From Vicugna vicugna (lineage: Eukaryota): a stretch of 64,000 nucleotides of DNA. The position numbers and the translations under genes are program-made. Of this stretch, positions 7,850 to 64,000 are shown one piece after another. The stretch spans positions 310,001 through 374,000 of the forward strand of contig MU057744.1 of the NCBI GenBank assembly GCA_013265495.1, given 5' to 3'. The notes under the pieces were generated by a model. That model was given only the letters and a program-made list of their open reading frames with translations, had not been told where the DNA came from and did not search any database. Position 1 is the first letter of the stretch. Each line of letters starts with the position of its first letter.

Positions 7850-8010
7850 TTTTTTTTTTTTTGGTGTTTTTTTGTTTTGTTTTGTTTTTGTTTTTTTTGA
7901 TGGGAGAGGTAATTAGGTTTATTTACCCTTAGAGGAGGTACTGGGGATTGAACCCAGGACCTCGTGCATGCTAATCATGCACTCTATCACTTGAGCTATA
8001 CCTTCCCCCC
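7850..8010 (-). mobile_element. Vic-1-like SINE
   Basis: gaggtaattaggttt...ggggattgaacccaggacctcgtgcatgc...gagctataccttccccc with T-rich tail. Confidence 0.88.
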
Positions 8011-12001: not shown

Positions 12002-12124
12002 TTTTTAGGGGGGAGGTAATTAGGTTTATCTATTTAGTTTTTCATGGAGGGACTGGGGATTGAACCCAGGTCCTCGTGCATGCTAAGCACATGTGCTCTA
12101 CCACTGAGCTATATACCCACCCCA
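12002..12124 (-). mobile_element. Vic-1-like SINE
   Basis: Same consensus as the other copies. Confidence 0.87.
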
Positions 12125-12538: not shown

Positions 12539-13138
<600 letters not shown>

Positions 13139-15235: not shown

Positions 15236-15362
15236 TTTTTTTTTTGGTGGAGGGAAGAGGTAATTAGGTTTACTTATTTTTAGAGGAGACACTGGGGGTT
15301 GAACCCAAGACCTCGTGCATGCTAAGCATGAGCTCTACCATTTGAGCTATACCCTCCCCCAC
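15236..15362 (-). mobile_element. Vic-1-like SINE
   Basis: Same consensus; TSD agtaacatttaatc. Confidence 0.88.
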
Positions 15363-21392: not shown

Positions 21393-21492
21393 TGGGGGTG
21401 GGGGTGTAGCTCAGTGGTAGAGTCTGTGCTTAGCATGCGCAAGGTCCTGGGTTCAATCCCCAGTACCTCCAATAAATAGACTGAGTGATTTT
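21393..21492 (+). mobile_element. Vic-1-like SINE inserted in a MER5-like element
   Basis: ggggtgtagctcagtggtagagt...gggttcaatccccagtacctcc; TSD aaa(g/c)atatgaattct. Confidence 0.87.
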
Positions 21493-24206: not shown

Positions 24207-25003
24207 TGTGACATAATAAATATGTGCTGGGCTCTGTCTTAGGGTCCTGACACAGAGCTCCTAAAACCCGTTTAATTTCCTGAGTGTTGCCATGCTAGGC
24301 ACCTCTTTTGTTCTAATATTAGATCTTTGACCCCAGTTCCTGAGCCCAGAGCTTCTAAGGCCCTTGGCATCTCCAGACTGACGAATCTTTTAGTATGCTG
24401 ATAGTGCCTGGGGGGCTGGGGACCCTGGAGAGCGTCAGGCTGGGGCTGGTCACCAGAAAGACCACACCTTGTGGAGAGGTTGGAACTTCTGCCCTCTGGG
24501 GTGGGCAGGGGGCTGGAGGAGGAGTTAATAATCAGCCGTGCCTACATGATGGCGTCTCCGTGGAAGAGCCTAACCTGTGGGGTTTGGAGACCCTCCAGGT
24601 TGGCGAGCGCTCCCACACGCCGAGAGGGAGGTACGCCCCTGACGCCGCAGGACAGCCTCTTGCCTTCCCTAGCTCGTGATGTCGCTGTTCCTCTGTGTCC
24701 TTTATTACACCCTCATGACAGACCGGTCGGCGGGTTTCCCCGAGTTCTGGGAGCCGTCCCGGCGGGTTCTCCAGCCTGAGGACGGAACGGGGGACCCGGG
24801 TTTGCAGGCCGGCGCTGAGCAGCACAGGTGGCACGCTGGGACTGGCGGTGGGGCCGCCCTGCGGGGCCGAGCCCCTCACCCGTGGGTCTGCGCTGACCCC
24901 CGGCAGTCGGTGTCCGAATCGGGTTAAACTGCACGTCACTTAGCCTGGTGTCGGGAGTGTTGTGAGACTGGAGGGGGAAGCAGTTCTCCCTGCAGTGAGT
25001 CAC
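24207..25003 (+). mobile_element. MER21-like ERVL solo LTR, 3' half GC-enriched
   Basis: tcctgacacagagctcctaaaaccc...ggggctggtcaccagaaagacca...gagcccctcacccgtgggtctgcgctgacccccggcag. Confidence 0.78.
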
Positions 25004-25325
25004 ACGTGTTCTCTGGGCTTCAGTTCTCGGCTTTAGAATGGCGACCCTGCTTCTCCGTGCTTGCTCCGCAGGTTCTCTGGGGAAGCGGGTGGAGTTCAGC
25101 CCCTTTCTGCACGCGGGCGGACCTCTGCGGACCCCCCGCCCGCGCGTCGGCCCCCGGGCAGCGCGCGCCGCCGCAGCCGCCGCAGCCGCTGGCGCGCTGT
25201 GAGGGTCCGGGGGCGGGTGGCGCGCCCTCGCCGGCCGGCGCCCCGCCCCCTCCCCGGGCCCCCTCCCGCGTCTCTCCCTGCGCCGCTCCCCAGCTTTGCC
25301 TCGGCGTCCTGTCTGAGCCGCTTCC
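24700..25325. promoter_or_regulatory. Intronic CpG island-like GC peak
   Basis: Dense CpG (gcgcgccgccgcagccgccgcagccg) and GC boxes (ccccgcccc), with abrupt AT-rich flanks. Confidence 0.65.
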
Positions 25326-26044
25326 ATTGAACATAACACTTTTAAGTCTGTGAATTTATCTCAGAATGGAGCTTTTAGCTGCATTCCTCAACTTTTGATG
25401 TGTAGTGTTTTCATTATCATTCTGTTCCAAATATTTTCTGTTTTGATGCGGTATTGCTTAATTTCTAAACATAGGATTTTCTAGTGAACATTTTGTTACT
25501 GACTTCCAGCTGAATTCCGCTGTGTGAGAATCTGCTCTGTAATTTCACTTTTTAAATTTTTATTTCTGATTGTGGTAATATAACTTAAAATTTACATTTT
25601 AAGCGTATAGTTCAATGGCATTAGGTACAATCATATTGTTGTGCAGCCATCATCATCATCTCCACAACGCTTTTTAGCTGCCCGAACTGAAACTTCATAG
25701 TCATTAAACAACAATGTCCCTCTCTTCCCTCCCCCAGCCCCGGGGAGCCACCGTTCTACTTTGTCTCCGTGAATCTGACTCCTCTAAGGACCTCATATTG
25801 GTGGACTCACACAGGACTTGTCTTTTTGTGACTGGATTATCTCACTTCGCATAATATCCTCAAGGTTCATTTGTGTTGTAGCACGTCAGAATTTCCTTCC
25901 TTTTAAGGTTGAATAATATTCCATTGCATGTTTACACCACACCAAAATACTTAGGAATTAACCAAGGAGGTAAAAGACTTGTATGGTGAAAACTATAAAA
26001 CAGAGCTGATACTACTATTACTTTATAAAATGTCAATATTAATT

Positions 26045-26177
26045 TATTTTCTTTTTTTATTTGGTGGGGGGGTGATTAGGTATATTTATTCACTCTTAGA
26101 GGAGGTACTGGGAATTGCACCCAGGACCCCATGCATGCTAAGCATGCACTCCACCGCTGAGCTATATGCCTCCCCCC
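26045..26177 (-). mobile_element. Vic-1-like SINE
   Basis: Same consensus as the other copies. Confidence 0.85.
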
Positions 26178-27548: not shown

Positions 27549-28279
27549 CATTAGAGTTCATGCTTGGTGGTGTGTGTCCTACAGATTTGGGCAAATTTAT
27601 AATGACATGTATCATACAGAGTAAGTTCACCACGCTAAAAATGCTCTGTGTTCCACCTATTCATCTCTCCTTCCCCTCCAACCATTTTAACATTTAAAAA
27701 TATTCAAGTGTGGTAGAATATACATAATGTAAAGTATACCGTCTTAACCATTTTTAATTACATGGTTAAATAGTGACTACGTACCTCAGACAGGTAGAAT
27801 CCGGTAGCGTTTGTACTTTTGGGATGCCGTATTTCACTTAGCAACGTGTCTTCAAGGTTCACCCATGCGGCCTGTGTCAGAGGTCCATTCCTTTTCATGG
27901 CTGAATGCTGCTCCATCCTATGTATATCACACTTTGTTTATTCATCAGTTGATGGACATTTGGGTTATTTCTACCCTTGGCTATCGTGAATAATGCTTCA
28001 CTGAACATTGGCATACAAGTACCTGTTTGGGTCCCTTTTTCAGTGCTTTTGTTTGTATACCTACATGTAGAATTGTTGAGTCATATAGTAATTCTATGTT
28101 TAGCTTTTTGTTTTAGTTTTGGGACTGCCAAACTGTTTTCCACAGGGGCAACACCATGTTACATTCCCACCAGTGATATACGAGGGTTCCATTTTCTCCA
28201 CACTCTCACCAACACTTGTTACTGTCCATTGTTTTGATCATTGCCATCCTATTAAGTGTGAAGTTGTATCTCATTTTGG

Positions 28280-28385
28280 TTTCTTTTTTCTTATCTTTTT
28301 TTTTTTTATGGAGGTACTGGGGATTGATCCCTGGACCTTGTGCATGCTTAGCACGTGCTCTACCACTGAGCTATATCCTCCCCCT
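28280..28385 (-). mobile_element. Vic-1-like SINE
   Basis: atggaggtactggggattgatccctggaccttgtgcatgcttagc...gagctatatcctccccc. Confidence 0.85.
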
Positions 28386-28529
28386 CATGGTGATTTTGAT
28401 TTGTATTTCCCTGATTATTAGTGATGTTGAGTATCTTTTCAGTTGCTTACTACACCATTTGTACATCTTTGGAGAAATGTCTGCATAATCCTGTGTTCAT
28501 TTTTCAGTTGGATCGTCTTTTTGTGTTGA

Positions 28530-31500
28530 TATATTTTTATTGAAGTATGGTCAGTTTACAATGTTGTGTCAGTTTCTCATGTATAGCGTAATGCTTCAGT
28601 CATACATGAACATATATATATTCATTTTCATATTTTTCACAAGTTACTACAAGATACTGAATATAGTTCTCTGTGCTGTACAGTATAAACTTGTTGTTTA
28701 TATATGGTAGTTAATATCTGCAAATCTCAAACTCCCAATTTATCCCTTCCCTTCCTCTTCCTGCCTTGGTAACCATAAGTTTGTTTTCTGTGTCTGTGAA
28801 TCTGTTTCTGTTTTGTAAGTTCATTTGGCTTTTTTTTAGATTCCACATGTGAGTATTTTTCTTTCTCTTTCTGGCTTACTTCACTTAGAATGACATTCTC
28901 CAGGTCCATCCATGTTGCTGCAAGTGGCATTATGCTGTTCTTTTTAATGGCAGAGTAGTATTCCATTGTATAAATATACCACAACTTCTTTGTTCAGTCA
29001 TCTGTTGATGGACATTTAGGTTGCTTCTATGTCTCGACTATTGTATATAATGCTACTATGAACATTGAGGTACATGTATCTTTTCACATTAGAGTTCCCT
29101 TTGGATATATATCCAGAAGTGGGATTGCTGGATCATATGGAAGGTCTATTTTTAGTTTTTTGAGGACTCTCCATACTGTTTTGCATAATGACTGCACCAG
29201 TTTACATTCCCACCAGCGTTGTAGGAGGGTTCCCTTTTCTCCACAGCCTCTCCAGCATTTATTGTTTGTGGACTTTTGAATGATGACCATTCTGACTGGT
29301 GTGAGGTGATGTCTCATGGTAGTTTTGATTTGCATTTCTCTGATAATAATGATACTGAGCATTTTTTCACATGCCTATTGGCCATTTGTATGTCTTCACT
29401 GGAAAATTGCTTCTTTAGGTGTTCTGCCTGATTTTGGGTTGGGTTATTTGTTTTTTTCTTATTAAATTGTATGAGCTGTTTATATATTCTGGAAATTAAG
29501 CCCTTGTTAGTCTGATCTTTTGCAAATATTTTCTCCTATTCGATAGATTGTCTTTTTGTTTTGCTTATGGTTTCTTTTTGCTGTGCAAAAGCTTATAAGT
29601 TTAATTGGGTCCCATTTGTTTATTTTTGCTTTTATTTCTGTTGCCTGGGTAGCCTGCCCTAGGAGAACATTGCTAAGATTTATGTCAGATAATGTTTTGC
29701 CTATGTTTTCTTTAAGCGGTTTATACTGTCTTGTCTTATAAGTCTTTAAGCCATTTTGAATTTATTTTTGTGTTTGGTGTGAGGGGGTATTCCAACTTCA
29801 TTGATTTACATGCAGCTGTCCCGTTTTCCCAACACCATTTGCTGAAGAGACTCTTTTTACTCCATTGTATGTTCTTGCCTTTTTTGTCAAATATTAATTG
29901 ACCAAAAGTTTGTGGGTTCATTTCTGGGCTCTCTGTTTTGTTCCATTGATCCATATGTTTGTTTTTGTACCAGTACCATGCTGTTTTGATTACTGTAGCT
30001 CTGTAGTATTGTCTGAAGTCAGGGAGGGTTATTCCTCCAGCTTCATTCTTTTTCTTCAGTAATGCTTTGGCAATTCTTGGTCTTTTGTGATTCCATATAA
30101 AATTTGAGATTATTCTAGTTTTGTGAAAAATGTCCTGGGTTATTTGGTAGGGATCACATGAAATGTGTAGATTGCTTTTGGTAATATGGCCATTTTAACA
30201 GTATTAATTCTTCCAATCCAAGAACATGGGATATCTTTCAATTTCTTTAAGTCATCTTTAAATTCCCTAATCAATATTTTGTAGTTCTCCACATATAAGT
30301 CTTTCCCTTCCTTGATCAGATTTATTCCTAAGTATTTTATTTTTTTGGATGCAGTTTTAAAAGGCATTGTTTCTTTTTTTTTTCTCCAAGTGTTTTTTCA
30401 GCTTTATTGAGATATAATTGATGTATAACGTGGTGTACAACATGATGATTTGACATACATATGACATACGTATATATTATGAATTCATTACCACAATAAA
30501 ATTAGTTAACAGATTCATTGCCACACACAGGTACAATTTGGTGTGTAGTGAGAACTTTTAAGATTTACTCCCTTAGCAACTTTCAAGTATATAATACAGT
30601 GTTGTTAACTATAGTCATCATGCTATACGTTACATTCCCAGAATTGATTCATCTTATAACCTGAAGTTTGGGGATTGTTTCTGTCCTTTTCTAATATTTC
30701 ATTGTTAGTGTAAAGAAATGCCATTGATTTCTATATGTTAATCTTGTATCCTGCTACCTTGCTGAATTCTTTTATTAGCTCTAGTAGTTTTTGTGTGGAG
30801 CCTTTAGGGTTTTCTGTATATAGTATCATGTCATCTGCATATGATGACAATTTTACCTCTTCTTTTCCAGTCTGGACCCCTTTTATTTCTTTATCTTGTC
30901 TAATTGTTATGGTTAAGACTTCCAATAGTCTATTGAAATAGAAGTGGTGAGAGTGAGCATCCTTGTCTTGTTTCAGATTTTAGTGGGAAGGTTTTCAGCT
31001 TTTCACTGTTGAGTATTATGTGGCTGTAGGTTTGTCATAAATAGCTTTTATTTTGTTGATATGTTCCCTGTATACACACTTTGATTAGAGTTTTTATCAT
31101 AAATGGGTGTTGAATTTTATCACATGCTTTTTCTGCATCTATTGAGATGGTCATGTGATTTTTGTCCTTTTGTTGATGTGATGTATCACATTAATTGATT
31201 TGCATATGTTGAACCATCCTTGTGTCCCTAGAATGAACCCAACTTGATCATGGTGTATGGTCTTTTTTCTGTGTTGTTGGGTTCTGTTTGCTAATAGTTT
31301 GAGGATTTTTGCATCTATGTTCATCAGCGATATTGGCCTATGACTTTCATTTTTGGTAGTGTCTTTGTCTGGCTTTGGTGTCAGGGTGATGGTTGCTTCA
31401 TAGAATGAGTTTGGGAATATTCCATCCTCTTCTGTCTTTTGAAGGAGTTTGAGAAGAATTGGTATGAGCTCTTCTTTGTCTGTTTGGTAGAATTCCCCAG

Positions 31501-34500
31501 TGAAGCCATTGGGTCCTGGACTTTTGTTTTCAGGGAGGTTTTCTATTGCTGCTTCTATTTCGCTTCTAGTGATTGGTCTGTTCAAATGATCTTTTTTTTT
31601 GTTTGTTTTTTTGATTCAGTTTTGGTGGACTATATGTTTCCAGAAACATGTCCATTTCTTCTAAGTCATCCAATTTATGCCATATAATTGTTTATAGTAT
31701 TCTCTTATGATAGTTTTGTATTTCTGTGATGTTGGTTGTAATCTCTCCATTTTCATTTCTTACTTCGTCTATTTGTGTCTTCTCTTTTCTTGGTGAGCCT
31801 GGCTAGAGGTTTGTCAATTTTGTTTACTCTTTCAGAAAACCAGCTCTTGGTTTGATTGATTTTTTCTATTTTTTTATCTCTATTTTATTTGTTGCCTCCC
31901 TGATCTTTATTACTTCTTTCCTTCTGCTGACTTTAGGTTTTGCTTGTTATTCTTTTAAAAATTCTTTTAGGTGGTTGTTTATATTTGAGATTGTTCTTTT
32001 TTGAGGAAGGCCTGTATCACTATGAACTTCCCTCTTAGGACTGCTTTTGCTGCATCCCATAGATTTTGTGTGGTTGTATTTTCATTGTCGTTTGTCTCAA
32101 GGTATTTTTTAATTTCTTTGATTTCATTGTTGACCCAGTGGTTTTTGAGGCTCATGTTGTTTAGTCTCCATGCTGTCATTTTTTTCTAATTTGTTTTACT
32201 GTGGCTGATGTCTAATTTCATGCCATTGTGGTCAGAGAAGATGCTTGAAATAATTTCATTCCTCTTAAATTTTTTGAAGCTTCTTTTGTGCCTGAGTATG
32301 TGGTCTATCCTAGAGAATGTTTCATGAGCACTTGAAGAGAATGTATATTCTGTTTTTGGGGGATGTAAGGTCCTAAAAATATCAGTGAAGTCCAATTTTC
32401 TATTGTGTCATTTAGTATCTCTGTTGCCTTACTGATTTTCTGTCTGGAAGATCTGTCCAACAATGTTAATGGTGTGGTAAAAAGTCTCCTACTGTTTCTG
32501 TATTCCCATCAATTTCTCCCTCTGTGTCTGTTAGTATTTGTTTTATATACTCAGGTGCTCCTATATTGGGTACATATATTAACAAGTGTAATATCTTCAT
32601 CTTGTATTGCTCCTTTGGTCATTATATAATGTCCTTTATCTTTCTTTATGGCCTTTGTTTTAAAGTCTATTTTGTCTGTTATGAATATTGCTACTCCCAC
32701 TTTCTTGTCATTCCCATTTGCATGAAATATCGTTCTCCATACTCTCACTTTCAGTCTATGTGTCCTTCACTCTAAAGTGAGTCTCTGGTAGGCAGCATAT
32801 TGTAGGCTTTTGGATTATTATCCAGTCCACCACTCTGTGTCTTTTGGTTGGAGCATTTAGTCCATTTACATTTATAGTAATTATTGATGTGTGTTTATTG
32901 CCATTTTGAACCTAGTTTTCCAGTTGATTTGGTATTACTTATTAGTTCCTTTCTTTTCCTTTTTCTTTTTGTGGTTTGATCGTTTTCTTTTGTATTAGCT
33001 TGGTTTCTTTTTGTTTTTTTGTGACTCTATTGTATGCTTTTGATTTGTGGTTACCCTGTTTTTCAAATATATTAGCCCCTTACTATATCTGTTTACTTTA
33101 GACTGGTAGTTATGTAGGCGCAAACACATCCTAAAAAGAACGAAGGGAAAAAAAAGAGAAGTATATTTTCTTGCTCCCTTGCTCCCCTCTCCCACCTTTT
33201 ATGATTTTGATATTCTTTAATTGTATTCATTTATTTATTTACATCTTCATGTTTATTCTCTTGCAACTCATAGTAGTTATTGCATTTCCAATTATGGTTT
33301 TTCTCATTTTTATAGCTTCCTGCTTCTTTTCTGTTTAGACCTTTCAATATTCCTTTTAGGATAGGCTTAGTATTGCTGAATTCTTTTAGTTTTTGCTTGT
33401 CTATGAAAGTCTTTATCTCTCCTTCTACTCTAAAGGATAGTCTTGGTGGATAGAGTATCCTAGGTTGCAGCTTTTTCTCATTCAGGACTTTGAATATATC
33501 TTGCCACGCCCTTCTGGCCAGCAGTGTTTGTGTAGAGAAATCAGCTGAAAGCCTAGTGGAGGTTCCTTTGTAACTGAGTCTTTGTTTTTCTCTTGCTGCC
33601 TTTAGAATCCTTTCTTTAACTTTGACCATCTTAATTATAATATGTCTTGGTATAGGTCTGTTTGGGTTCATCTTGTTTGGGATCCTCTGTGCTTCCTGTA
33701 CTTGGATATCTGATTCCTTGGGAAGTTTTCAGTCATGTTTTCTTCAGATACCTTTCAATTACCCTTTCTTCTCCTTCTGGGACCCCTATTATGCATAGGT
33801 ACCATCTTAATTATAATATGTCTTGGTATAGGTCTGTTTGGGTTCTTCTTGTTTGGGACCCTCTGTGCCTCCTGTACTTGGATATCGGTTTCCCTTCTGA
33901 GATTTGGAAAATTTTCAGTCATGATTTCTTCAAAAACCTTTTCAATACCTTTTTCTCTTTCTTCTCTGTCTGGTATCCCTATTATACTTATGTTGGCACA
34001 CTTTATATTATCCCATAGGTCCCTTATATTGTTTTCATTGGTTTTTACTTGCTTTTCTGTCTGCTATTCTGATTCGGTGACTTCTGTTATCCTGTCTTCT
34101 AAGTCAGTTATTTGTTCTTCTGCATTATCTAGTCTGCTTTTGTCTGCCTTTAGCTTGGCTCTTATCTCAGCAATTGAGTTTTCTGTTTTTAATTGGCTGT
34201 TTATAGTTTCAATTTCCTTTTTAAAGTATTCTGTCTCAATTCATAGTCTCTTATTTCCTTCAGTGCATTGATCATTCCCTTTTTGAAGCCATGATCTAGT
34301 AGACTGTTGAGATCTATCACTGAGATCAGGGGAGTTCTCTTTTTCTTTTAATTGGGAGTGGTTTCTCTGCTTCTTCATTTTGCTTATATTTCTCTGGCTC
34401 TGTGGATCTAGGAGTGTCAGTTATTTACTGTGGTCTTGAAGGGCTGTTTTATTTTTTTACTTGTTTGTTTTTATTTAAGGTGGGAGTGTTCCTGTGTGGT

Positions 34501-35932
34501 GGATGGTGTCCATCTAATAGTTTTGTTGCAATGGCTGTTCTTCGTATGGACAGTTGCCACATCTTTCTTCTGTGAGTGTTGACTGTTATCCCTTAGGTTG
34601 GGGGTGTGGTTGGTGTTGTGATCAGAGGCTGCCCTGATTGTTGTTGAGCATGGCCTCCATTTTTGTTCTGTAGTTGTCACAGCCTTGCCAGGGCCTGGTC
34701 TGCTCCCTTGTTGCAGGAATATAAGCTTCTAGACCTGTTTCTCAGCTGTGGTGTGGGATAGGCAGGTCTGGAGTGCTTCAGCTGGGAAGAAGAGTAGGCA
34801 GGAGGTGTCCACAGGGAAGTGCCCTCTGTGGTTCTGTCTGTCACTTGTTACGTGGGCTTATAAAGCACTCTTTGTTGACACTGCCCTTGCCCCTGCCTTA
34901 GCTGTGGGTATGTCAGCCACCTGCTGTGATGCCCCCTTAGTTCTGAACCCCAGGAACCACCAGTGCATATCCGCCAACGTCAAGTGCTAAGACCCACTGT
35001 AGTGAGCATCCAGTCACTTACCTGAATCCGCGGTGCACCGCAGGGCCAGTGCAGACCCCAGCCCCGCCTCCACATATGGTATAGAAGGCTGCCTATTGTA
35101 AATACCTGTACTTGCCCCGAATCAGAACTCTGCTCACTGCCTGTCCCTCCCAGAGGCTCAGGTCCACAAAGGGTCCAGAGACAGTATATCTGCCCCCTCT
35201 GCCTGGGGCTGTAAACAGATCCTGTGAAGTTGCAGGGCCACTGGGTAGGATTCAGCTTTCAGCCCCACCTCCACGCAGCAGGGATGGCTATGACCAAGCC
35301 CCACCTCTCTTCTCATGAGAACACACCAGCAGTGGAGCCGAGTGGAGACAGGCTACGGCTCGGCTGTGTTGTGGCCCTCCCCACCATTCATACCAGCAGT
35401 GGTGCTTTTTTATGGGGGTCCCATGCTGTTCTGTTCTGCACACATCCCCAGCCAGAGCTCACATCGCCCTCCAGTCCCCTGAGGCTACCTCCATGCCGTT
35501 GGCCCCAGGCTCCTCACCGACCTCCAGCAGCCCCTCTCGGCTCACATCTAGGGCCACAGATCCACGGACCCTCTGTGTCAGTTTCCCTTAGTTCTGTCTG
35601 TCAAGCAGCTGCCACTTTCTCATCCAAGCCTTGGAAGCTCCACTTCTGCCCCGCTGACCTCCCCGCTAGAGAGGGGGTGGCCCAGTGTGAGGGTGCCTTC
35701 CTTCCTATGCTGCTCCCTCACTGCAGGACCAGTCCTGCACCAATTTTTTCTTTTTTCTTTGTTTTCTTACTGGATCTTGTGAGAATCCTGTATTTCGAAG
35801 CGAGAGATACTCGGCCAGAGTTCAGTAGGTGTTCTGTGTGATTCAGTGGGTTTGTAGATGTTATTCTTGGTGTATTTGTGGGAGAGGGTGAGCTGTGAGT
35901 CTCTCCACTCTGCCATCTTGGCTCAACACCTC
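28530..35932 (-). mobile_element. Near full-length, degraded LINE-1 (cetartiodactyl/camelid lineage)
   Basis: ORF2 fragments (endonuclease ...IFHANGNDKKVGVAI, RT ...YADDMILY, C-terminal [14 protein letters not shown]) and ORF1 fragment (PRHIIIKM...KERILKAAREK). 5' end has YY1 motif CAAGATGGC (35912-35920). 17-bp TSD tc(g/a)tctttttgtgttga at 28513-28529 / 35933-35949. Many stops and frameshifts. Confidence 0.96.
30375..30670 (-). mobile_element. L1MA-type 3' end fragment inserted inside ORF2 of the large L1
   Basis: T-tract, then tttattgagatataattg...; TSD gg(c/g)attgtttct at 30363-30374 / 30671-30682. Confidence 0.8.
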
Positions 35933-37831
35933 TCATCTTTTTGTGTTGAGTTTTGAGAATTTGTAAGTCCTTATGAGATTTGTGATTTGCAAATATTTTG
36001 TCCCATTCTGTAAGTTGTCTTTTCTCATTTTCATGTACAAAAGTGTCTAAATTTTATAAAGTCCAATATATCTGTTTCTCCTTTTGTCACTTGTGCTTTT
36101 GGTGCCGTATCTAAGAATCCATTGGCAAATCCTTGGTCATGAGAATTTACCTCCAAGTTTTCTTCTAAGAGTTTTAAGGTTTTAGCTCTCATATTTAGTT
36201 TGTAGATTTATGTTATTTTTTTTTATCTGTGATGTGAGGTAGATGTCCAAATTCATTCTTTTGTATGTGGATATCTAGTTGTGTCCACACCATTAGTTGA
36301 AGAGACTGTCCCTTCCCCATCGAGTGGACTTGGCACTCTTGTCAAAAATCAGCTGACTATGTGTGGGTTTATTTCTGGACTCTCAGCTCTGTTCCTTTGG
36401 TCTAATCCTTCCGCCAGCACCACACTTTTTTGATGACAGTAGCTTTGTAGCAAGTTTTGAAATTAGAAAGTGTGAGCCCTCTGACCATGTTCTTTTTCAA
36501 GATTGGTTTGGCTGTTCAGGGCCCTTTGCTTGCTTTTACTTTTTTGAAGGGTATCTTCACCAGTTATAGTGTTGCAGATTACCAGTGTGGTTTTTTTTTC
36601 CCTTCAATATTTGAATATATCATTTGTTTATCTTCTGGCTTTTACTATGTCTATGGAGAAGTCTGCTGTATCAGACTCTCCTTTGAGGGTAATCTGTTCC
36701 CTCTCCCTCATCCCCAGGGTTTTTTCCCTTTGTGGCAACTGCTGTGGGGTTTTGGTTGTTGCTTTTCTTTTGTCTTTTTTTCTTTCTTTTTTTTTCTTTT
36801 TGCATTTGTACTGTTTGTTCTTAGAGCTTCTTAAATTTGTGGTTTAATGGCTTTTGTTAGTTTTGTAATAATCTCCATCATTGTTACTTCAAAGATTTCT
36901 TCTTCCACAATCTCTTCTGCCCTCTTTTTGGGACTGCCGCTGTACGTACTGCAGGCCCTTTCGTTGTATTCCTTATGTCTCTTACATGCTACTCTGTTTT
37001 TCATCACTTGTTACTGTGCTTTGTTCTGTACATGCTTTTTTCTGATCTAACTTTTAAATTGTGTATAATCTATGATAAAACTCTATCCATTGGATTATAA
37101 TCTGAATTACTGAGTTTTTCAGTTCAGGATTTCCGTTTAGGGTTTTTAAAAAAGTTTGAAAATTTCCTGCTGCAGTTCTCACACACGTCTTTTAGTTTCC
37201 TAAAAATATTAACCACAGTTAAAACGCCGTCATGCAGGTGTCTGGTGGATCTATTTTTGTTGGCCGCTGTTCTTCTTGGTTTTCAGTCGTACAGTCTTGT
37301 CTTTCTCTGTGCGTGGCTGTGTGTGGTTGAGTGCCGGGTATTGATTATGAAGAATTACAGTTGCGCTTTGCGATGGCCCTATCTTCCTCCTGAGAGGGCA
37401 GAGGTAACTCTGGCAGGGGGAATTCCAGATCGCTGTAGACAAATCTGGGAATGAGATTACTGGGAGTAGGCCTTTGGTCCCTGCAAGGCCTAGTCTGTTT
37501 AGAGTTGGTTCCCTATTCCTCGTAGGATGAGGATGTGTAAAGCCCCTGTACAAAACCGAGAGGGTTGCCCGCAACCTTCCCCTTCCTGGGGAGGCTGTGC
37601 TGTTTAATACTGATCTCTTAGCCCCTCAAATTTGTCCAAAGCTCGTTCAGCTTTTTAGCATCTTCGCCTTTTCTACCAGAATCAGCAGATGCTTCATGGA
37701 GAAAAAGTTGCTCTAAATGCTTCGTTCAACTCTGAGCTCCCCTTCTGCGCTCAGATATTGGCCTTGTAATCCTTCACTGCCTTGGTAGCTCTCTGGTGTT
37801 TTCAGAGAAATATATTGTATGTATACATACT

Positions 37832-48657: not shown

Positions 48658-48843
48658 GCACCCAACAGGGGGATCCTTCATTCGTCCAAATAAAGTAAAT
48701 TTTGGAGTAGACTTTCTCACTGCAATTAAAAACCGCTATGTGTTAGAAGGAGAACTGGAGGAAGAGGAAGAAGAGGAAATTGTGACAATTGGCAATAAAC
48801 CTGTAGAAACTGTTGGTTTTGACTCTGTTGTAAAACAGCAGAG
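48658..48843 (+). CDS. TBCE: TBCE exon 4
   Basis: cttccAG|...[61 protein letters not shown]...|GTAAGT; 186 nt. Confidence 0.98.
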
Positions 48844-50145: not shown

Positions 50146-52927
50146 CATTTCTTGATACCTCTGATTTTTAGTATAGATGACCAGCATTTAAACATAAAAC
50201 AACTCAGAAAAAGAATATGAGAAGAAATATATGTATGTATGTGTATGACTGAAACATTATGCTGTATGCCAGAAATCAACACAACATTGTAAACTGACTA
50301 CTTCAGTGAGAAAGAATGCAAATTTTAAAAAGTACTTTTCACAATATTTAACATAATTAAAATAAAACCTAATGTTATTTTTAAAAACTCAGAATACATC
50401 GATTTTTTTAAAAGCAATAACTTGACTGTTACTTACAGACAATATACAGTCGTTGTTGAGGACCTAGAAAATATAAATTGAACCAGAGAGGGTCATGACT
50501 GTTGCACACTCGAGAGAGAACTAAGGTGAATGGTTTTTGCTGCTGATTTCTAGAACTGTGTGCTTCATGGGGTTAGAGTTCTTTGTTTTTTCCACTTGAA
50601 ATGCAAATATTTAAGTATCTTTTTCCCCAAAAGAGGCACTTTTTTTTTCTCCCTAGCCGGTTAATCTCTCTCAGAGAACACTGTGGGCTCTGTGAATATT
50701 AACAAATTGCAACAGATTTTCCTCCCCTAGTTTATGAACAGCCGGTAGCTCATGGAGTTTTCTGGTGAAGGACTTCCTGCTTGAACATCATCGTGGTCAA
50801 TAATGAGCTAGTGTCCTTCTTGGAAAGAAATACTAGAGTCCGTCAGGCTGGGTCCAGATGTCAGCTAAGCCACTTTCTGGCTCGGACAGCAGTTAGAGCT
50901 AGTTCCTTACGGTTTCTGAGCCTTGGTTTCCTCGCTTACAAAGCCGTGCCTAAGCTGTGAGAGTGGTGGGGAGCGCTGAAATCGTTTCTCTTTGGAGGTG
51001 GCTGTGGCTCTGGAGTGATGGCTGTACTGAGACCCGATCCCTAAGCTTTGTACCAAGGTTTCTGGGCACTGCAGGGGTGCAGCGGGGTGTTTTTAATTTT
51101 GGAGGGAAACAATGACGCGTGTTAGACGTGGTGCAAACTGCTAGTTGGAGGTAGTTCATAGTTTCATGATCGTCCTACTACTGTTCCTTTCAGGGTGTCA
51201 TGTCCCTGCACAGCTGGGCTTTTTGGTGATTCCTGTGCTGGAAGAAAGTTTCTCCTGAAAATCACCATGGCACAGGAAACGGAGGTGGTGGGGCCAGTCT
51301 GATTCTAGGGTTTGGGAAGTTGCGCAGTGCTCAACAGACAAGAAGTTGCCAGGACAGAAATCATCGCTAGATTGTTTGGCCCTGACTGCGTACTAAATGG
51401 AACCGTGAGGTGTTCCTTTTGGCCTTGGCACCATGAAAAAATTACTGACCCGTGAAGGGCCCCGTGAACTGAGAAAGTTCAGGAGCCTCTGCTTGGTTCT
51501 GATGACTGTCACAGCTCCTGCCCTGGCTGGTGATCTTAGTCTTCCCCCTAAAGGTTGTCAGTTTTATGTTTATTTTTGTAAATATTTATAAAATTATTTA
51601 CTACATATCAGGCAGTATTGAGGGTTTCGCAGATATGAGCTCACTGTTACCATAGCGTTGAAAACTTGTGGAATGTATGTAACACCAGATGTACCTTTTA
51701 AGCATTTTCAAGTGTGCAGGTCAGTAGCGTTGGGTATGTCCCCAGTGTGGTGCAGCCGTCCCCACTGTCCCTCTCCAGAGCCTTCTCATCTCCCCAAAGT
51801 GAACCGCTGTCGCCTTAAACCATCACCTCCACATCTCTCCTCCCCCAGCCTGGTGATCATGGTGCTACTTCTGACCTGTGCGGTTGACACCCACCTCGGT
51901 ACCTCCTATAAGTGCAGTTGTTTGTGCTTTTGTGACTGGCTTATATCCCTTAGCATAGTGTCCTCAAGGGTCACAGATGTAGCGTGTCAGACTTTCCTTC
52001 CTTCTTAGGGCTGAGTAAGACTCTGTTGTGTGGATTTACCACGCTTTATGTCTGTTCATCGGTCGGTGGACACTCGGTTTGCTTATGTGTGACTGCTGTG
52101 TGCCGGGAGCCCAGGTGCACACATGTGCAATCTGAGGCTCAGGGAGGTCAGCTCAGCCAGGGCGGAAGGAGGGTGGAGTCGGGATTGGAAGCCAGGCGGC
52201 CTGGCTCCAGATACTGTGTTCTAGACACTCTTCAGCGCTGTGACGCGTGGGCCCTTTTAATGAGTAGGAGACACAGATTCTCTCCACTTCAGAAGTGGCT
52301 TCCGGGAGGGTCTAAAAAAGCTGAAGACACGCATGCTCTCCAGATGCATCCCTGGAGAGGCTTTCCCACGCGAGTCCAGACGGCACTGCTGGGAGTCACC
52401 CCTGGGTCACCAGAGGAGTCAGTAAAGGAACTGCCTTTATTCCACGGTGTGCGGTCGGGGGCTGCAGCGCGCGTGTCCGCCGCGGACGGGGTACCGCAGA
52501 GGGGGGACGTCAGCTGCAGGTGCGGCGGGCCCCGTTCACGGCAGGCTTCAGAGTGTGCGAAGATACCGTGATTGTTGAGGGCCATGGACATAGGTAGTAA
52601 AGCTACTGAGAAATGCTGAGCACGAAGTAGACACCAGCCGTGGCGCGGTGCTTCCCGCAGGGGCAGAGGGCGCGCAGGGCGGGGCGGTGGGAGGGGACGC
52701 CGGGGACGCTGCTGGCGTTTGCGATGTTCGCGATGCTTGCTGGCTGGCTTTCTCTTTTCTCTTTTCTCTTTTCTTAGTAATGCTTTATTTCTTAAGTTGA
52801 GTGGTGGGTACTGGATTTCTTATTTTTGGCGGCTTCTCCTAATGTCTGAAACACTTTAATTTTTTGAAGGGCCGCTGGAGAGCCTGCGTGTTTCTGCATA
52901 CATGTGAACTATGTGTTTTTCATGCAG

Positions 52928-53016
52928 TCAGCTGAGCAAGTTGCAAGAAGTGTCCCTGAGGAGCTGCGCAGTAAACGGTGCTGGGGACCGAGGAGAAATT
53001 GCGGCCGCCTGCCCTA
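52928..53016 (+). CDS. TBCE: TBCE exon 5
   Basis: catgcAG|...(S)QLSKLQEVSLRSCAVNGAGDRGEIAAACP(N)...|GTATCCTTT (U12-type donor); 89 nt. Confidence 0.96.
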
Positions 53017-53706
53017 GTATCCTTTCCGATGAGGGCTTGTCACTGGGGCCTGACTGGGTGTGACACTTGGGCCAGGCATCCCTGGTCGCCTCCACAGTGC
53101 CTGCTCTCCAGACTGCTTCCTCACGGGGACTTGCTGTCCCCCGGGTAGTCGCCGCCCAGCTAAGTGATTGCCTTCCCGGACCCCCTGCTTTCAGGTGAGG
53201 CCGTGCGACTCGCCCTGGCCAGTGAGATGTCAAGTGGGCGCTTCGAGGGGGACAGAGGTGGCGGGCGCGCGCCCTGTCCACTGCCTTTCCACCCCCTGCC
53301 TGGAGCACAGACGGTGTGCGCGGGGCTCAGCAGACGACCTGTGGGAAGCAAGCTGCCCGGGAGGGACTGGGGCGCCAGGATGGGGGCGCCGGCGTCCTGG
53401 ATGGTCCCTGGGCTCCCGTCCGTACGGCGGAAAGCGGTTTGTTATGGTCCCTCAAAGCAGGCCTTCTTACCTGCGCCTTCTCTCATCAGCGTGTTTTTTG
53501 GTTTTTGCTGTCTATGTAGTCTTATGCCCACAGCTAAAAATAGAGGTGGTAAGTTTAAAAGAAAAAATTCCCAATACACTTGCCCCATTTTGTAGTCTGG
53601 TGGAACACGATTCATTCAAGTGCTTCTTGGTTCTGTGTCTCCTGGGCTGCAGTCCTAAGAAAGCCCAAAAAACCAGTGGCAAATCAGATAAACTTTTTCT
53701 AATTTT

Positions 53707-54345: not shown

Positions 54346-55049
54346 AAACTTTCTCTGACTTTAAAAGATCATCTTCCAGTTCCTTAAATTGACCTAGTCT
54401 CTACATAATAATTTATGCAAAAGATAGCTTATAATCAGGTTTCTCGGGTGAAGACAGTATTTCTAACCACCTTGACAGTTGCTCCTTTGTGGTGACAGGG
54501 ACTAGAGCAGAGATGCCGGTCCCTTGGGCCTTGGGGGGGAGGTGTCTGTTGGGACCTATCTGTGAACAGCCCCCTCCCCACCTTGGCCCCAGATGTGCAT
54601 TTCCTCTGCAGGAGAGGCGGCCAAGTTGAGGGTGTTGAGGTGGGTTTGGAATCGAGCCTGGTCAGGAGCAGAGTGCCCCAGAGCCTTCAGGAGCATTCTG
54701 TACTCTGGCTGCCTCCTCAGTGATGTCAGAAGATTGGAAATTGGGCCGGTTCAAAGCTGATTTCCCACACACCGGGAGCGATGTGGTCAGCAGAGGGCTT
54801 TGGGAACTCGGCCGTGTGGCTGGTGGAGTTGTCAGCAGTGCTGGTTCAGCCTGTTCTTGCCGCGGAAGAGCGTCCCCCAAGACTTGAAGAAATGGGGTTT
54901 CGGGAGATAATCAAGTAGTGGTGGATATTGCAGACCCAGTGACGAATGTCTCGCGCTTCCTGACTGAATTCTTGCCCGAAGTTGAAGTGCTGCCTGTGTA
55001 TTTAATCCGGTCACCTTTTTGGGGCTCATCTCTCTTGGAGGTCATTGCT

Positions 55050-55945
55050 TCTGCGGGGACTGAAGTCAGTGCGCGTGCAGCCGACCTCAGCGGGTCACGT
55101 CGGGTCTGAGGGCTCAGATCGGGAGCAGCTGCTTCACCAGTTGGCTCTGAACTTCAGGTGGGCACGTGCCCACCGGCGCAAGAACTCCCTGGACTGCGTG
55201 TGTGTCGGGGGGGCACTGCATTCGCAGCTGCCGGCTGGTTCCGCGTGGACGTCAGGTGGCGGTGGTCCCTGCGCTCCGTGCGGACCAGTAGAAATGTGTG
55301 TGATTCCAGCCTCCGCAGTGGAGGGCGTGAGTGAGTGGACTTAAACCGTTTCGAGACCGGGTGGCCCCGGGTGAGCAGGGCTGGTGGGCATGTGGGGCGG
55401 GTGCGGACGCGCGGGGCTGGGGAGGGGCGCACGAGGGGCTGCGCCCCAGGGACTCCGGGCCCGCTGCTCCGGCCGTCGGGGACCCCGAGAGCGGGCGTGT
55501 GCCCAGGTCGCTGGAGCAGGAGCCCGAGGGGGCCCAGGACCCGCATCGCCGGCCGGCGCTCGCAGCTCGTCGACCCTCCCCAGACCCGACCTCCAGAGGG
55601 AGCCGGTCCACTCGTGGCGGAAGCTCAGGCGGTTGCAGCCCGAAACCCCGCTGTTCTCTGCCGTCCCCGCCCCTGCACGTCACTCCGCATCAGAGCTCTG
55701 TCCCCGGGCTCTGGGCTTATCTCCTGACCGTCCTGCGCCCCGAGTCCTTGAGAGCCTCGGAACCGGTTAAAAACGCGGAAACCGGCGGTAGCGCTCAGGC
55801 CCCGTACCCACCGCCCGGAGCCGCCCGGCTCTGGTTCTGGGCGGCTGAGACCCGTCCCTTCCTGCGGGTTCCGGGTTCCGCCGCCTTCCCTCCCTCCCTC
55901 CTGCCCACGCGTAGAGCGGTCTGATCGGTACCGCCTACGTCCTCT
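55050..55945. promoter_or_regulatory. Intronic CpG island-like GC peak inside the U12 intron
   Basis: About 900 bp of high GC with undepleted CpG. Confidence 0.6.
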
Positions 55946-57770
55946 CCTTTCCAACCAGTTCTGTCCAGTGATGCCGTTTCTATCAGAAGCTACTTTCTCC
56001 GTGTTTTATGTGCAAAGACCCCCCGCTGCACTATGGGGCGTAAGAAAATGAGTTTGGAACTGAAGCTGATCTGGGTTTAAGTTCGCACTTGTTGATCTGC
56101 ACAGCCGGCCTGGGACGGGGTTGGCTCACTCCCTCCCTGGCCACCTCCCCCCAGTCTGTCTTGCAGAGGTGGGAGCGCCCAGCCCGGACCTCCGACCCTG
56201 TCTCCTCTGTTCACACTCACTCCCAGGGAGACAGGTGCTGCCTGCAGACGCTGGGCTCCTGCGCTCTGGCCTCTGGCCCAGTCCCGTCCCCTCCCAGGCT
56301 TGTCTCCCCACCGTGTACCTGAGACCTCTGTTTGGGTGTCATCTCGAATTTAACACACCAGAACGTGAAGTCCCCGCAGCCCTGCTCGTCTGTGGTCTTC
56401 CCTGTGTCAGTAAAGGGCACCTCCCGGGGCCCGGGCCAGGGACTGGGCAGGTAACTTAACCCTTCTTTTTTCCCCACATCTCCCATCTAAATCCATCCGC
56501 AAGCACCCCCAGCCCCGCTTCCTCATCGGGAGACGCAGCCCGGCACTTCTCCCGCCCGCTAGCACCGCGATCTGGCCCCAGCCCCTCCCGGCCCCTTTCT
56601 GCTATCTCTGTGGTCCTGCAGCCTGCTCCCCAACAAGCCACAGAGCCTCCTTCCGAGGGCCTCGGTCAGCGCCCACCCTAGGTCCTGTCTCAGGCAGGGA
56701 CTAACACAGGCAGTGTGGGTCCTCCAAGGCCCTCTGTGCCGTGGCCCAGCCTCTAGGGCCTCATCTCCAGCACCCCGGGCACCCTGCGTCTGTCATCCCT
56801 GCTGCAGCCAAGCCGTCGTGACCTCAGGGCCTTTGCGCCGTCCTTCCCTCTGCCTGGATGCTCTTCTCCACGATGGCAGCCCCTCGTCCCCTCTAGTTCT
56901 CTGCTCCAATGTCACCTCATGGAGAAGGTGGTCCTCCGTGCCCCCCCGGGCTGCAGGCCCTGCCTTCTTGCTCTGAGAACGGGTCTGTGTCTGGCACACC
57001 TGGGGTGCATATGCTCATGGAGTTATTTGCTGAATCAGAGCATGAGTGGAGCAGTTCCCACGTACATCAGAGGAGGGTGGAGACTCTCCCTCAGCCCTGT
57101 TCTGCCCCAGGCTTCTCTCTGCCTGGGGTTCTGCCAGGCTCGGCCCTTGATGCCACTGCCATGTCTCCCCACCTCATGTCAGCTCAGGGGCCTTTCTCTG
57201 TCCTGCTGATCTCCCTCTCTGCAGTCCTGTGCCAGGGACACTGGTGTCACTAAGCTCATCCAGGCCACAGGAGACCCTGATTCCAAGCCATCCTGAGCAC
57301 GTGCCAACGTTTGTCCAGGTCTCCCCGTTGTCCCCCGGAGGCGCGCTCAGCATGTGGGGATCCGTGCAGGGCAGAGCCCCCCCTGGTGCCCAGAGGGAGG
57401 ACAGTGTGTGTCCATGTGGGACCACAGCCTGCGGTGCACCTTCTGTGCTGAGTATGTCAGCGCCCCCAGCACTGTTGTCTCTGCCCTCTCTCTGGTTTAG
57501 TGTTAGGATGTTTGGTTCTTACTCATTGGATTGTCGATGTTTGTCCCAAGTTTGCAGCATGTGACAATGAACTTTTTAGTTCCTGGGTGAATAGTTGGAT
57601 GATTTAAAGGGGTTGGATGACTTAATATATGTGCTCGGGGAAGAATTTCAAGCAGAGTAGAGGGTAGAAAATGAAAAGTTAAAAATTACATGTTCTAGAA
57701 CTAAGAGGTAACCAGTATTACATCTTTTATGGATCTTTGTGTGTTACTGTTTCTTAACATGTGCATTTAG

Positions 57771-57870: not shown

Positions 57871-58869
57871 GTATGAACTCGCAGTGGCCTGACTGTCACC
57901 TCAGATAAAAGTCCTGATCTCTCCTGCTCCCTCCTGGCATCACTGTAGGGATGAGGTGGGGCGTGGGGCGGGAGGAGGGGAGTGGCTTAGTTGAAGGTAA
58001 GTTTAACTTATTCTGTGTTATGGTTTTTCAGGTGGTCCCACAAGGTGATTAATGGGGAGTGTGCTTCACTTTTGATCAGGGAGGTGGGGAGGTTGACATA
58101 TTGAACTGGAAGGTCTTCCTGGTTCTTATAAGCCTGACCTTAAAAGATGGACCACGCGGGGACCCTGATGCTTACCTGGGGAGAAGAGCTGCTCCATCCT
58201 GCAGCTCCTGGCAGGTACCTGCTTTAGGGGTGAGCGGTCTCACCAGCGGTTGCCAAATTCAGCTCTGGGGAGGATTTTTCATGGAGCTCCGGGTTTCACT
58301 GAGGTCATAGTGTTCCCGGCCTTCTTGAACATCTGGTTAGCTTTGATCTCAGACCCTCACTTTGCAGGGGCTGCGCCAGGTCTCCCCTTCTGCCCCTGAG
58401 CCACCTCTGACACGTACAGAGGAGTCGGCTCCAGCTCAGGCACGTCCGGGGAGCAGGTGCGCGGGCCTGAAGGAGCCCCGCGTCCGAATAGCCAAGTGTG
58501 CGTGGGCCCGTGGTGCTGCCTCTTGTGGGGCTAAGGGCTCGTGTGCTAAAGTGGCGGCGTCTTTCAAAATGACTGTCAAGCCGCGGGCGCCTTCTGAGGT
58601 TAGGACTTGAGAGAGCACCTCCAGGGCAGTGGTTTATCTCGTCTGTCCTGATAGCAGAAGGGCGGACCCTGCTCAGAAGCCAAATTCCAGCCCCTGGTCC
58701 AGCGCAGCGGTCAGACTGCTGAGGGCGCGGCTTCCCATCACGGCGTCCCGCCCGCGGCCCATCAGGCCAGGTGACCTGACGGGGGCTGCCGGAGCTGCCC
58801 CGACCCCGTGCGCCCATGCCAGGCGTCAGGAAGTTGTGTGTTGTTAATGTCAAAAATTAAGTAGTCTTC

Positions 58870-59000
58870 GGGGGAGGGTCAGCTCAGGGGCAGAGCACAT
58901 GCTCAGCATGCACGGGGGCCTGGGTTCAGTCCCCAGGCCCTCCATTCAGTCGGTCAGTCAGTCAGTCAATCTAATGACCTCGGCGCCAAAAACAAACAAG
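58870..59000 (+). mobile_element. Vic-1-like SINE with many A/T->G/C changes
   Basis: gggggagggtcagctcaggggcagagcacatgctcagcatgcacgggggcctgggttcagtccccaggccctcc. Confidence 0.85.
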
Positions 59001-62133: not shown

Positions 62134-62250
<117 letters not shown>

Positions 62251-62332: not shown

Positions 62333-62397
62333 GGTGCAAGACGTCCATGTTCCCGTCCTTGCAGTACCTCGTTCTAAATGACAATCAGATATCACAC
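62333..62397 (+). CDS. TBCE: TBCE exon 11
   Basis: ttttctAG|(G)CKTSMFPSLQYLVLNDNQISH|GTAAGG; 65 nt; preceded by an 87-nt intron. Confidence 0.96.
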
Positions 62398-62713
62398 GTA
62401 AGGGCTCCTTCAGAATGGCCAGACCTGGTTGTCCACTCTCATGGGGGTTTGTAAGCTCCTTCTATTCAAGAGTATTTTAAATTGAAAGAGGGATGCTTCC
62501 TCAGGGTGAAACTCCTCATACCAACCCCAGAATCCTCGCTCGCACGTACGCAGCCCGTCGGTGGCTTTCACGGCCCCGGGGGCGCTAGCTGCAGGGGACG
62601 TCCCGGGCTCCGGGGCAGCGGGGGCCTGGGCGTTGCTGTCGCTGGTCCAGATCATCTGGAAAACCAGCCTGAAACGTGTTTCTTTCCGTGTGTCCTCCGT
62701 GGCCGGGTGGCAG

Positions 62714-62866
62714 TGGTCGGTTATCAGTGAGCTGGACAAGTTGCCGAGCCTGCACGCCCTGTCGTGCGCCAGGAACCCCCTGACCGAGGGCGGCAGAGAC
62801 GCGCAGACCACCCGCCAGCTCATCATCGCCAGGGTCGGTCAGCTCCGAACCCTCAACAAGTGCGCG
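62714..62866 (+). CDS. TBCE: TBCE exon 12
   Basis: ggc[59 protein letters not shown]; 153 nt. Confidence 0.95.
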
Positions 62867-62928
62867 GTGAGCGGGACGGGCGGGCCCGCGGGAGGCGGGG
62901 GCGGGGGCGGGCTGCGTGGGGCCCAGGG

Positions 62929-63077
62929 AGTCCCAGGGCTGGCCTGTCCTCGTGGCCGTGGCTCCTCGTGGCCCCTCGAGGGGCTGCCCCGCTCCGTCGG
63001 ACAAGTCCCAGGGCTGGCCTGTCCTCTTGGCCCTGGCTCCTCGTGGCCCCTCGAGGGGCTGCCCCGCTCCGTCGGAC
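62929..63077 (+). repeat. Tandem duplication, 75-bp period, 2 copies
   Basis: 62929-63002 versus 63004-63077, 2 mismatches. Confidence 0.95.
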
Positions 63078-63325
63078 TGCGGGGCGCAGCGTCCCCGTGG
63101 CCTGCTGTGCGAGGCCGGGGACGGGCGCTGGTGCCTCCTCGGTGGCCGGCCTCGCGAGTCCTGCGCCCGCGGCGGGGGCCCGTGTGAAGGCGGCGCGCCC
63201 CGAAACCCGTCTTCTCTGAGTAACTGCTGGGTCCTGTCACTGTTAGCAAGGACGTCGCCGTGTGGCTCCCCTCCGCGGGGGCGGGGCGGGGGTGGGGCAG
63301 CGTCACACCGCGCTTCCCCGCGCAG

Positions 63326-63479
63326 GTTGAGCCCGAGGAGAGGCGCGGCGCGGAGCTCGACTACCGGAAGGCGTTCGGGGCCGAGTGGAAGGCGGCCGGC
63401 GGCCACCAGGACCCGGGCCGGGACCGGCCGAGCGCGGACTTCCTGGCCGCTCACCCCCGGTACCAGCTCCTCTGCCGCA
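63326..63479 (+). CDS. TBCE: TBCE exon 13 (gene continues beyond window)
   Basis: cgcgc[53 protein letters not shown]...A|GTGAGT; 154 nt. Confidence 0.96.
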
Positions 63480-64000
63480 GTGAGTCCTCGTCACCGTCGC
63501 CAGGGCCCTGGCCGCGCGGCTTCCTCGGGCGCCCCAGCGGGTCCCCGCGTTGTCGCTTCTCGGGGAGGGGGGCTTCTCGCTCGTCTCGGTGGGCGAGACG
63601 CCCCTTCCTGGGCTCCGCAGCGGGGACCCGGGGGTGGGCGGGGACTTAATGAGGCAGCGGCCTCCCCCGCGGGGGAGCTGGGAGCCCCGGGGCGCCTGGC
63701 AGGGAGAGCCTGGCCCCCGGGGGGGGGGGAGGCGGCTCTGAGCAGGCCCGCCGGGTCCCAGGAGGTGGGGACCGCCGGTCAGGAGGGGCAGGGGTTCCCC
63801 GGCGACCCCCACCCCGGGAGGTTTGGACGTGAGCAGCACTGAAGGTGGAACCGAGGCTCCGGTGTTGCTTTGTGCCCCCCAGGTAACTTTACTGTTCCTG
63901 AAAGTCAAGCGCTGTCCTGGCGCCCCGTGTGCCCAGTGCCCGCGCCTCCTCTCTGTCCCTGGTGGACTCGCCATTTTGTTTTGACTTCATTATATTCCGA

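Follow-up and report, generated by a model that had tools for sequence, protein, structure and literature searches.

Two neighbouring exons of a single gene are almost saturated with G and C at third codon positions within a stretch of 64,000 nucleotides of the Vicugna vicugna genome (contig MU057744.1, positions 310,001 to 374,000; hereafter referred to as the window). The question raised by this locus is which force filled these exons with G and C, and whether the same force also altered the encoded protein. An earlier note on this DNA had described the pattern as an abrupt codon-composition switch within one gene and had proposed biased gene conversion to be driving amino-acid change in an essential chaperone.

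Gene structure and local composition

The locus harbouring the two exons is identified by protein similarity as camelid TBCE (tubulin-specific chaperone E). The translations of coding exon 11 (62714-62866) and coding exon 12 (63326-63478) match residues 322-371 (E 1e-16) and 374-422 (E 7e-20), respectively, of PDB chain 9m1k_E, 'Tubulin-specific chaperone E'. The exon 12 product is 100 % identical to two TBCE isoforms of Vicugna pacos in the protein collection and 98 % identical to Camelus models, and it shares 76-90 % identity with other mammals among the matches listed. Exon limits were derived from tblastn searches with camelid TBCE proteins combined with inspection of GT/AG splice sites. 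Twelve coding exons, beginning with the start ATG at 12761, are located inside the window, and the last four (64672-64740, 65255-65314, 67885-67976 and 68149-68241, in window-continued coordinates) in the next 40 kb. The resulting model comprises 16 coding exons that join into a 530-codon open frame with AG/GT at all junctions. Coding exons 11 and 12 correspond to exons 12 and 13 of the earlier note, and coding exons 9 and 3 to its exons 10 and 4; its numbering is thus one higher, which fits one non-coding first exon. The window protein differs from the V. pacos models P0001 and P0002 by E149G, T229S and D243N (window positions 53000, 60360 and 60410, respectively), and the window sequence is therefore not identical to these models, but that of a close relative or of another individual.

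The pig orthologue P0037, with which the window protein aligns over its entire length, displays a CAP-Gly, LRR and ubiquitin-like architecture (Pfam: CAP_GLY 11-75; LRR families 148-394, with LRR_9 at 255-394; Ubiquitin_2 457-526). According to these pig coordinates, exon 11 (plus strand; 51 codons, bordered by AG/GT splice sites) encodes the last LRR and the LRR cap, and exon 12 (63326-63479, plus strand; 51 codons and one base) the linker from the cap to the ubiquitin-like domain (UBL). Taken alone, exons 11 and 12 yielded zero Pfam matches.

G or C at the third codon position (GC3) was counted in 46 of the 51 codons of exon 11 and in 49 of the 51 codons of exon 12, and likewise at 24/27 and 26/28 of their fourfold sites, respectively (50/55 in both exons together). 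Combined, the two exons have a GC3 of 95/102, versus 207/428 in the other 14 coding exons (Fisher p 7.6e-19). Low GC3 is found upstream of exon 11 in exon 9 (62181-62245, plus strand; 8/22) and also in exon 3 (48658-48843; 19/62), and the intermediate value of exon 10 (62333-62397, plus strand; 16/22) marks the rising edge of the spike. The hand counts given previously for the two saturated exons were reproduced exactly by this per-exon computation, and the contrast exons chosen there (8/21 and 18/61) were borne out as well, the one-codon differences arising from a different assignment of split codons. Since exon 9 ends 469 bp before the start of exon 11 at 62714, the word 'abrupt' is fair. 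The word 'switch', however, does not apply, as GC3 falls back to 0.45-0.48 in exons 13 (11/23), 14 (9/20) and 16 (14/30). The composition change is a local spike and not a lasting switch.

A CpG-island-style scan delimited a GC- and CpG-rich segment of 1500 bp at 62451-63950 (GC 0.72, CpG o/e 0.80, 155 CpG), versus a mean GC of 0.447 and a CpG o/e of 0.44 in the 104 kb examined. Besides both exons, this tract takes in the 3' portion of intron 10, the whole of intron 11 (62867-63325, plus strand; 459 bp) and ~470 bp at the start of intron 12. GC amounts to 0.77 in intron 11, 0.59 in intron 10 and 0.64 in intron 12, as compared to 0.41-0.47 in introns 1-3, 7 and 8, and the flanks of exons 11 and 12 range from 0.64 to 0.79. 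The GC excess is regional, covering non-coding together with coding DNA, and is not codon-specific. In a 100-bp profile the 5' edge is sharp, with GC rising from 0.45 and zero CpG at 62400-62499 to 0.66 at 62500-62599; at the 3' edge GC declines over ~1 kb, to 0.60 and then to 0.50 past 64000.

In length, GC and o/e, the tract lies above the thresholds that define CpG islands (500 bp or more, with a GC of 0.55 or more and a CpG o/e of 0.65 or more). The 104 kb contain seven other CpG-rich segments, 400-1000 bp long (at 24.5, 52.3, 53.1, 55.0, 58.4, 64.25 and 69.4 kb), and six of these lie in the range of 52-70 kb, so that the 3' half of TBCE is dotted with peaks, among which 62451-63950 is the largest and most GC-rich. 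Five CpG-island-like segments are located in TBCE introns (24501-25400, 52301-52750, 53101-53500, 55001-56000 and 58401-58900; GC 0.63-0.68, o/e 0.69-0.88), and their ORFs have no Pfam match. Upstream of the TBCE start codon, no CpG-island-like segment is present within the window.

Intron 11 contains a 75-bp unit in tandem duplicate (62929-63077; 2.0 copies, 97 % matches; Tandem Repeats Finder), which also appears as a second match in the search of the own genome. Runs of (GCGGGG)n follow the exon 11 donor (62888-62911, plus strand) and precede the exon 12 acceptor (63275-63298). In a search of all six frames, the tract yielded 15 frames of 80 aa or more without a stop, which are of low complexity because of the high GC content. 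Rfam revealed no RNA family in the tract, and none of the six tRNA-model matches of the window falls into it. Five RNA runs contain 0.20-0.23 of the words sampled from the stretch, about its exonic share (533 of 2501 bases); they offer no expression evidence.

Outside the tract, exon 15 (contig positions 377885-377976) is a second GC3-rich exon (25/31; fourfold sites 17/18); the introns flanking it have only 0.54-0.58 GC, and it carries the camelid-private S490A. Intron 1 of TBCE harbours an antisense LINE-1 remnant (28000-37000, minus strand), which comprises L1 ORF1 domains (Transposase_22 and Tnp_22_dsRBD; 33231-33728, minus strand) and a reverse-transcriptase fragment (31151-31615, minus strand) and accounts for an AT skew of -0.3 to -0.45 at 28000-37000. 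The six Rfam tRNA-model matches (35-55 bits) are scattered over intergenic and intronic DNA, one on the plus strand (21400-21471) and five on the minus strand (7933-8005, 12045-12118, 15284-15356, 26100-26171 and 28309-28380), and probably represent tRNA-derived SINEs rather than tRNA genes.

Direction, lineage and timing of the replacements

Relative to PDB chain 9m1k_E (species of the chain not given), 17 of 50 aligned residues differ in exon 11 and 13 of 49 in exon 12. All replacements that had been listed earlier against the human protein (EK->GR, N->A, L->P, I->V, K->R and E->A) are present in this comparison. For a broader view, the window protein, one Camelus protein and 31 other mammalian proteins (n=33; one full-length model per species, picked from 120 listed) were aligned with MAFFT. 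Across the 102 codons of the two exons, the first two of the 33 ranks for GC-encoded residues are taken by the window and Camelus (GARP 39 and 38, FYMINK 13 and 13, respectively; other sequences GARP 24-36, FYMINK 17-28), followed by Pipistrellus, Ctenodactylus and Tupaia. Over the remaining 428 codons, the two camelids fall in the middle of the 33. As judged from this alignment, the amino-acid composition shift in the two exons is camelid-specific.

Sites were polarised if a residue common to both camelids was absent in pig and two ruminants, and if the plurality residue of the 28 non-artiodactyls was present in pig or a ruminant; polarisation thus follows the plurality of outgroups and not a formal reconstruction, and weak-to-strong (W->S) direction was scored by nearest codon. 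Overall, 37 camelid replacements were polarised, 25 of which lie outside the two exons. The 12 within them, six in exon 11 (F327V, N329S, Q335P, S351G, K352R and I365V) and six in exon 12 (N394A, K398A, K407R, E412A, E413D and L426R), are without exception W->S (12/12, 0 S->W). Elsewhere in the protein, camelid replacements go up in GC at 17 sites, down at 2 and remain the same at 6, and pig-derived replacements also lean towards W->S (14 up, 5 down). As the W->S bias is gene-wide in camelids and present in pig, direction alone is not tract-specific.

The density of camelid replacements is 12/102 in the two exons versus 25/428 elsewhere (p 0.049). By the identical definition, 2 versus 18 were counted in pig and 3 versus 11 on the ruminant stem, and the comparison of camelids with pig yields p 0.105; on these protein counts, the enrichment in the two exons appears modest (p 0.05-0.1). 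Camelid-private residues (15 sites) are not enriched there, 3/15 falling into exons that make up 19 % of the codons, and one site is private to the window. For 8 of the 12 sites, between 5 and 8 other mammals have the camelid residue as well, and only F327V, N329S and I365V changed nearly invariant positions. The replacements are conservative, and those in the LRR cap and linker may be regarded as tolerated passengers.

Three-sequence relative-rate counts (window, pig, outgroup) in the two exons ranged from 9/6 to 16/2, with p<0.05 for 4 of 13 outgroups. Branch lengths were estimated by ML (JTT+G4, fixed species tree) for the two-exon partition and for the rest of the protein. The camelid stem measures 0.189 substitutions/site in the two exons versus 0.094 in the rest and takes up a 2.26 times larger share of the tree length; the corresponding ratios are 0.93 (pig), 1.00 (ruminant stem), 1.12 (rhinoceros), 1.19 (window tip) and 1.07 (Camelus tip). 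Since the total tree lengths of the two partitions are similar (3.51 and 3.93), the two exons are not generally fast-evolving.

The window states of the two exons are also found in Camelus at 11-12 of the 12 sites. After the split of these lineages, D406G (W->S) arose on the window lineage, and G350R and L360H (both GC-neutral) on that of Camelus. The Camelus model P0004 translates through intron 10, and its residues 257-377 match window positions 62510-62872 at 89 % over 121 residues, which indicates that the GC-rich intron is common to Camelus. Together, the states shared with Camelus, the GC-rich intron 10 and the branch lengths place the episode on the camelid stem. Scans for mammalian TBCE DNA returned none; two loci at 50-56 % were obtained from metagenome contigs and three bacterial MAG loci at 50 % from genome contigs. 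The amino acids suggest that synonymous sites likewise underwent a burst of W->S change on the camelid branch.

Several camelid gene models deviate around this part of TBCE. The annotation of the Camelus models P0004 and P0005 is unstable around the GC-rich tract and the 3' end, and P0005 as well as the alpaca isoforms P0001 and P0002 run from exon 15 into the intron, unspliced to the last exon. The Bactrian camel models P0060 and P0091 share a divergent version of exons 11-13. Between P0091 and the window, 17 differences were counted at residues 325-449, 12 being S->W and 4 G->C (hand count, nearest codon); several of the S->W differences are at CpG, e.g., R->H and R->W. This version could be a second copy or reflect poor assembly of the GC-rich stretch.

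Candidate causes of the spike

The observations point to a strong localised G/C fixation bias over ~1.5 kb on the camelid stem, and its cause was probably GC-biased gene conversion (gBGC) at a meiotic recombination hotspot. The bias would have acted after the camelids split from pigs and ruminants, and before camels and llamas split from each other. At the hotspot, heteroduplex mismatches would have been repaired towards G:C, and because mismatch repair favours G:C, W->S alleles would have been over-transmitted regardless of their fitness effect. Synonymous and intronic sites would have been filled with G/C and CpG kept high in this way, and a dozen or so replacements that the protein tolerates (K->R, N->A, I->V, E->A, L->R, F->V) would have been dragged into the LRR cap and the linker. 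Possibly, the episode was tied to an intragenic CpG island.

It is the combination of a kilobase tract, introns, synonymous sites and replacements affected alike, a single mutational direction and a single lineage that forms the signature of gBGC. Coding and non-coding sites are changed alike over about 1-2 kb, and recombination hotspots are described as extending up to 1-2 kb in the part of the literature cited here (PMC2631073), so that the tract with its 1.5 kb fits a hotspot in size. Neither a second TBCE copy nor a processed pseudogene was found in the own genome, where 11/11 matches lie within the TBCE locus; with a single locus there is no conversion donor. Recombination-linked gBGC would be the force at work, in preference to mutation bias or hypomethylation. 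The proposal that biased gene conversion drives amino-acid change in this chaperone thereby gains in part: the regional GC, the 12/12 W->S direction, the camelid ranks 1-2 of 33 and the 2.3 times larger share of the stem speak for it, whereas the p values of 0.049 and 0.105, the 3/15 private residues, the gene-wide W->S bias and a composition within the limits for CpG islands weaken it.

The last of these points leads to the alternative that the tract represents an 'orphan' CpG island within the gene that escapes methylation in the germline, e.g., an internal promoter or regulatory element, in which CpG was spared deamination and GC stayed high without recombination. Its size and composition (1500 bp, GC 0.72, CpG o/e 0.80), the frequent CpG-containing codons in exons 11 and 12, the GGGGCGGGG-type runs and the other CpG-rich segments nearby in TBCE agree with such an island. 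Sparing of CpG alone, however, can neither turn A/T into G/C at fourfold sites, 50/55 of which are G/C, nor would it yield 12 W->S replacements on one lineage. Furthermore, no annotated isoform starting in the tract was noticed in an unsystematic look at the models listed, no RNA family was found in the tract and its open frames are of low complexity. As a replacement for gBGC the island is rather unlikely, and the two are compatible, since hotspots by default lie at CpG islands where recombination is not directed by PRDM9.

Somewhat less likely again is a local mutation bias towards G/C in camelids, e.g., by error-prone repair at a fragile or replication-related site, acting without transmission bias. 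An equal regional W->S pattern in exons and introns would be expected from it, and the tandem duplication and the G-runs suggest local instability; against it, mammals are, to our knowledge, not known to have W->S mutational hotspots of such strength at the kilobase scale. In addition, human allele-frequency data have been argued to favour fixation bias over mutagenic recombination, as far as the cited part of that work extends (PMC2631073).

Adaptive change of the LRR cap and linker by positive selection on the camelid protein could account for the 2.3 times over-representation of the stem in the two exons and for F327V, N329S and I365V at otherwise nearly invariant sites. It is very improbable, as it leaves the saturated synonymous sites and an intron with a GC of 0.77 unexplained, and as the changes run 12/12 in one mutational direction, are conservative and recur in other mammals at 8/12 sites. 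An artefact, be it misassembly, contamination or conversion by a GC-rich paralogue, is hardly credible: GC-rich stretches are hard to sequence and the Bactrian camel models P0060 and P0091 carry a divergent version of the exons, but at least 0.88 of the words sampled from the stretch are present in 14 DNA runs from five studies with two organism labels, independent alpaca and camel gene models encode these exons as well, no other locus of the own genome matches the two exons, and splice sites and reading frame are intact.

Significance and comparison with known systems

With gBGC as the probable cause, TBCE would illustrate, cleanly and on a small scale, how a conserved housekeeping protein can be rewritten in part by a force that is not adaptive. 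The gBGC footprint in the two exons could inflate dN/dS, and branch or branch-site tests on camelid TBCE would be prone to a false signal of positive selection there. Sequencing and annotation of the tract are difficult as well, several camel gene models being disturbed exactly at this place, and the tract provides a defined camelid site for asking whether gBGC still acts and whether hotspots are stable. Among the matches listed in the literature search, there was no relevant PRDM9 work in camelids, no camelid title on biased gene conversion and no TBCE in work on alpaca or on positively selected genes; likewise, no paper in the library searched joins TBCE with biased gene conversion. The kind of event, a gBGC footprint, is well known and the TBCE example is new; no new question is opened by it, episodes of gBGC at the scale of exons being already well known from primates and rodents.

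In Mus musculus, the gene Fxy (Mid1), the 3' part of which lies in the pseudoautosomal region, carries 28 substitutions that are nonsynonymous, each one W->S, according to the cited portion of PMC2631073. TBCE resembles Fxy in the abrupt composition change inside one gene and in the many replacements in the affected part. Fxy differs by a known translocation into an obligate high-recombination region and by the whole 3' end being affected, whereas the TBCE tract spans 1.5 kb, is gene-internal, reverts downstream and has no known chromosomal cause. Single-exon W->S bursts in human genes (Berglund et al.; PMC2631073) and the numerous exon-specific and lineage-specific gBGC episodes of rodents (2025 study; PMC12290510) share with TBCE, as far as its replacements show and in the parts of these sources cited, the clustering of W->S changes in one or two exons on one branch and the W->S replacements carried along. 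The tips leading to the window and to Camelus are almost without excess (1.2 and 1.1 times) versus 2.26 on the stem. In the published episodes, synonymous substitutions were mapped on DNA alignments, whereas for TBCE the evidence across species comes from amino acids. As an impression, the end state of TBCE (GC3 0.93, CpG o/e 0.80) seems extreme if only one short-lived hotspot produced it.

In dog and bird genomes, CpG islands and GC peaks are found at stable recombination hotspots, and TBCE resembles these in its kilobase peak of GC and CpG within moderate-GC DNA and in the clustering of several peaks. It is conceivable, though doubtful, that a long-lived hotspot on an intragenic CpG island, independent of PRDM9 turnover, arose on the camelid stem and keeps GC3 at ~0.93 and o/e at ~0.8 in camel and llama. 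In that case, recombination in camelids would in part be 'dog-like' or 'bird-like', i.e., stable and centred on CpG islands, and TBCE would be subject to W->S pressure to this day and not bear the scar of a finished episode.
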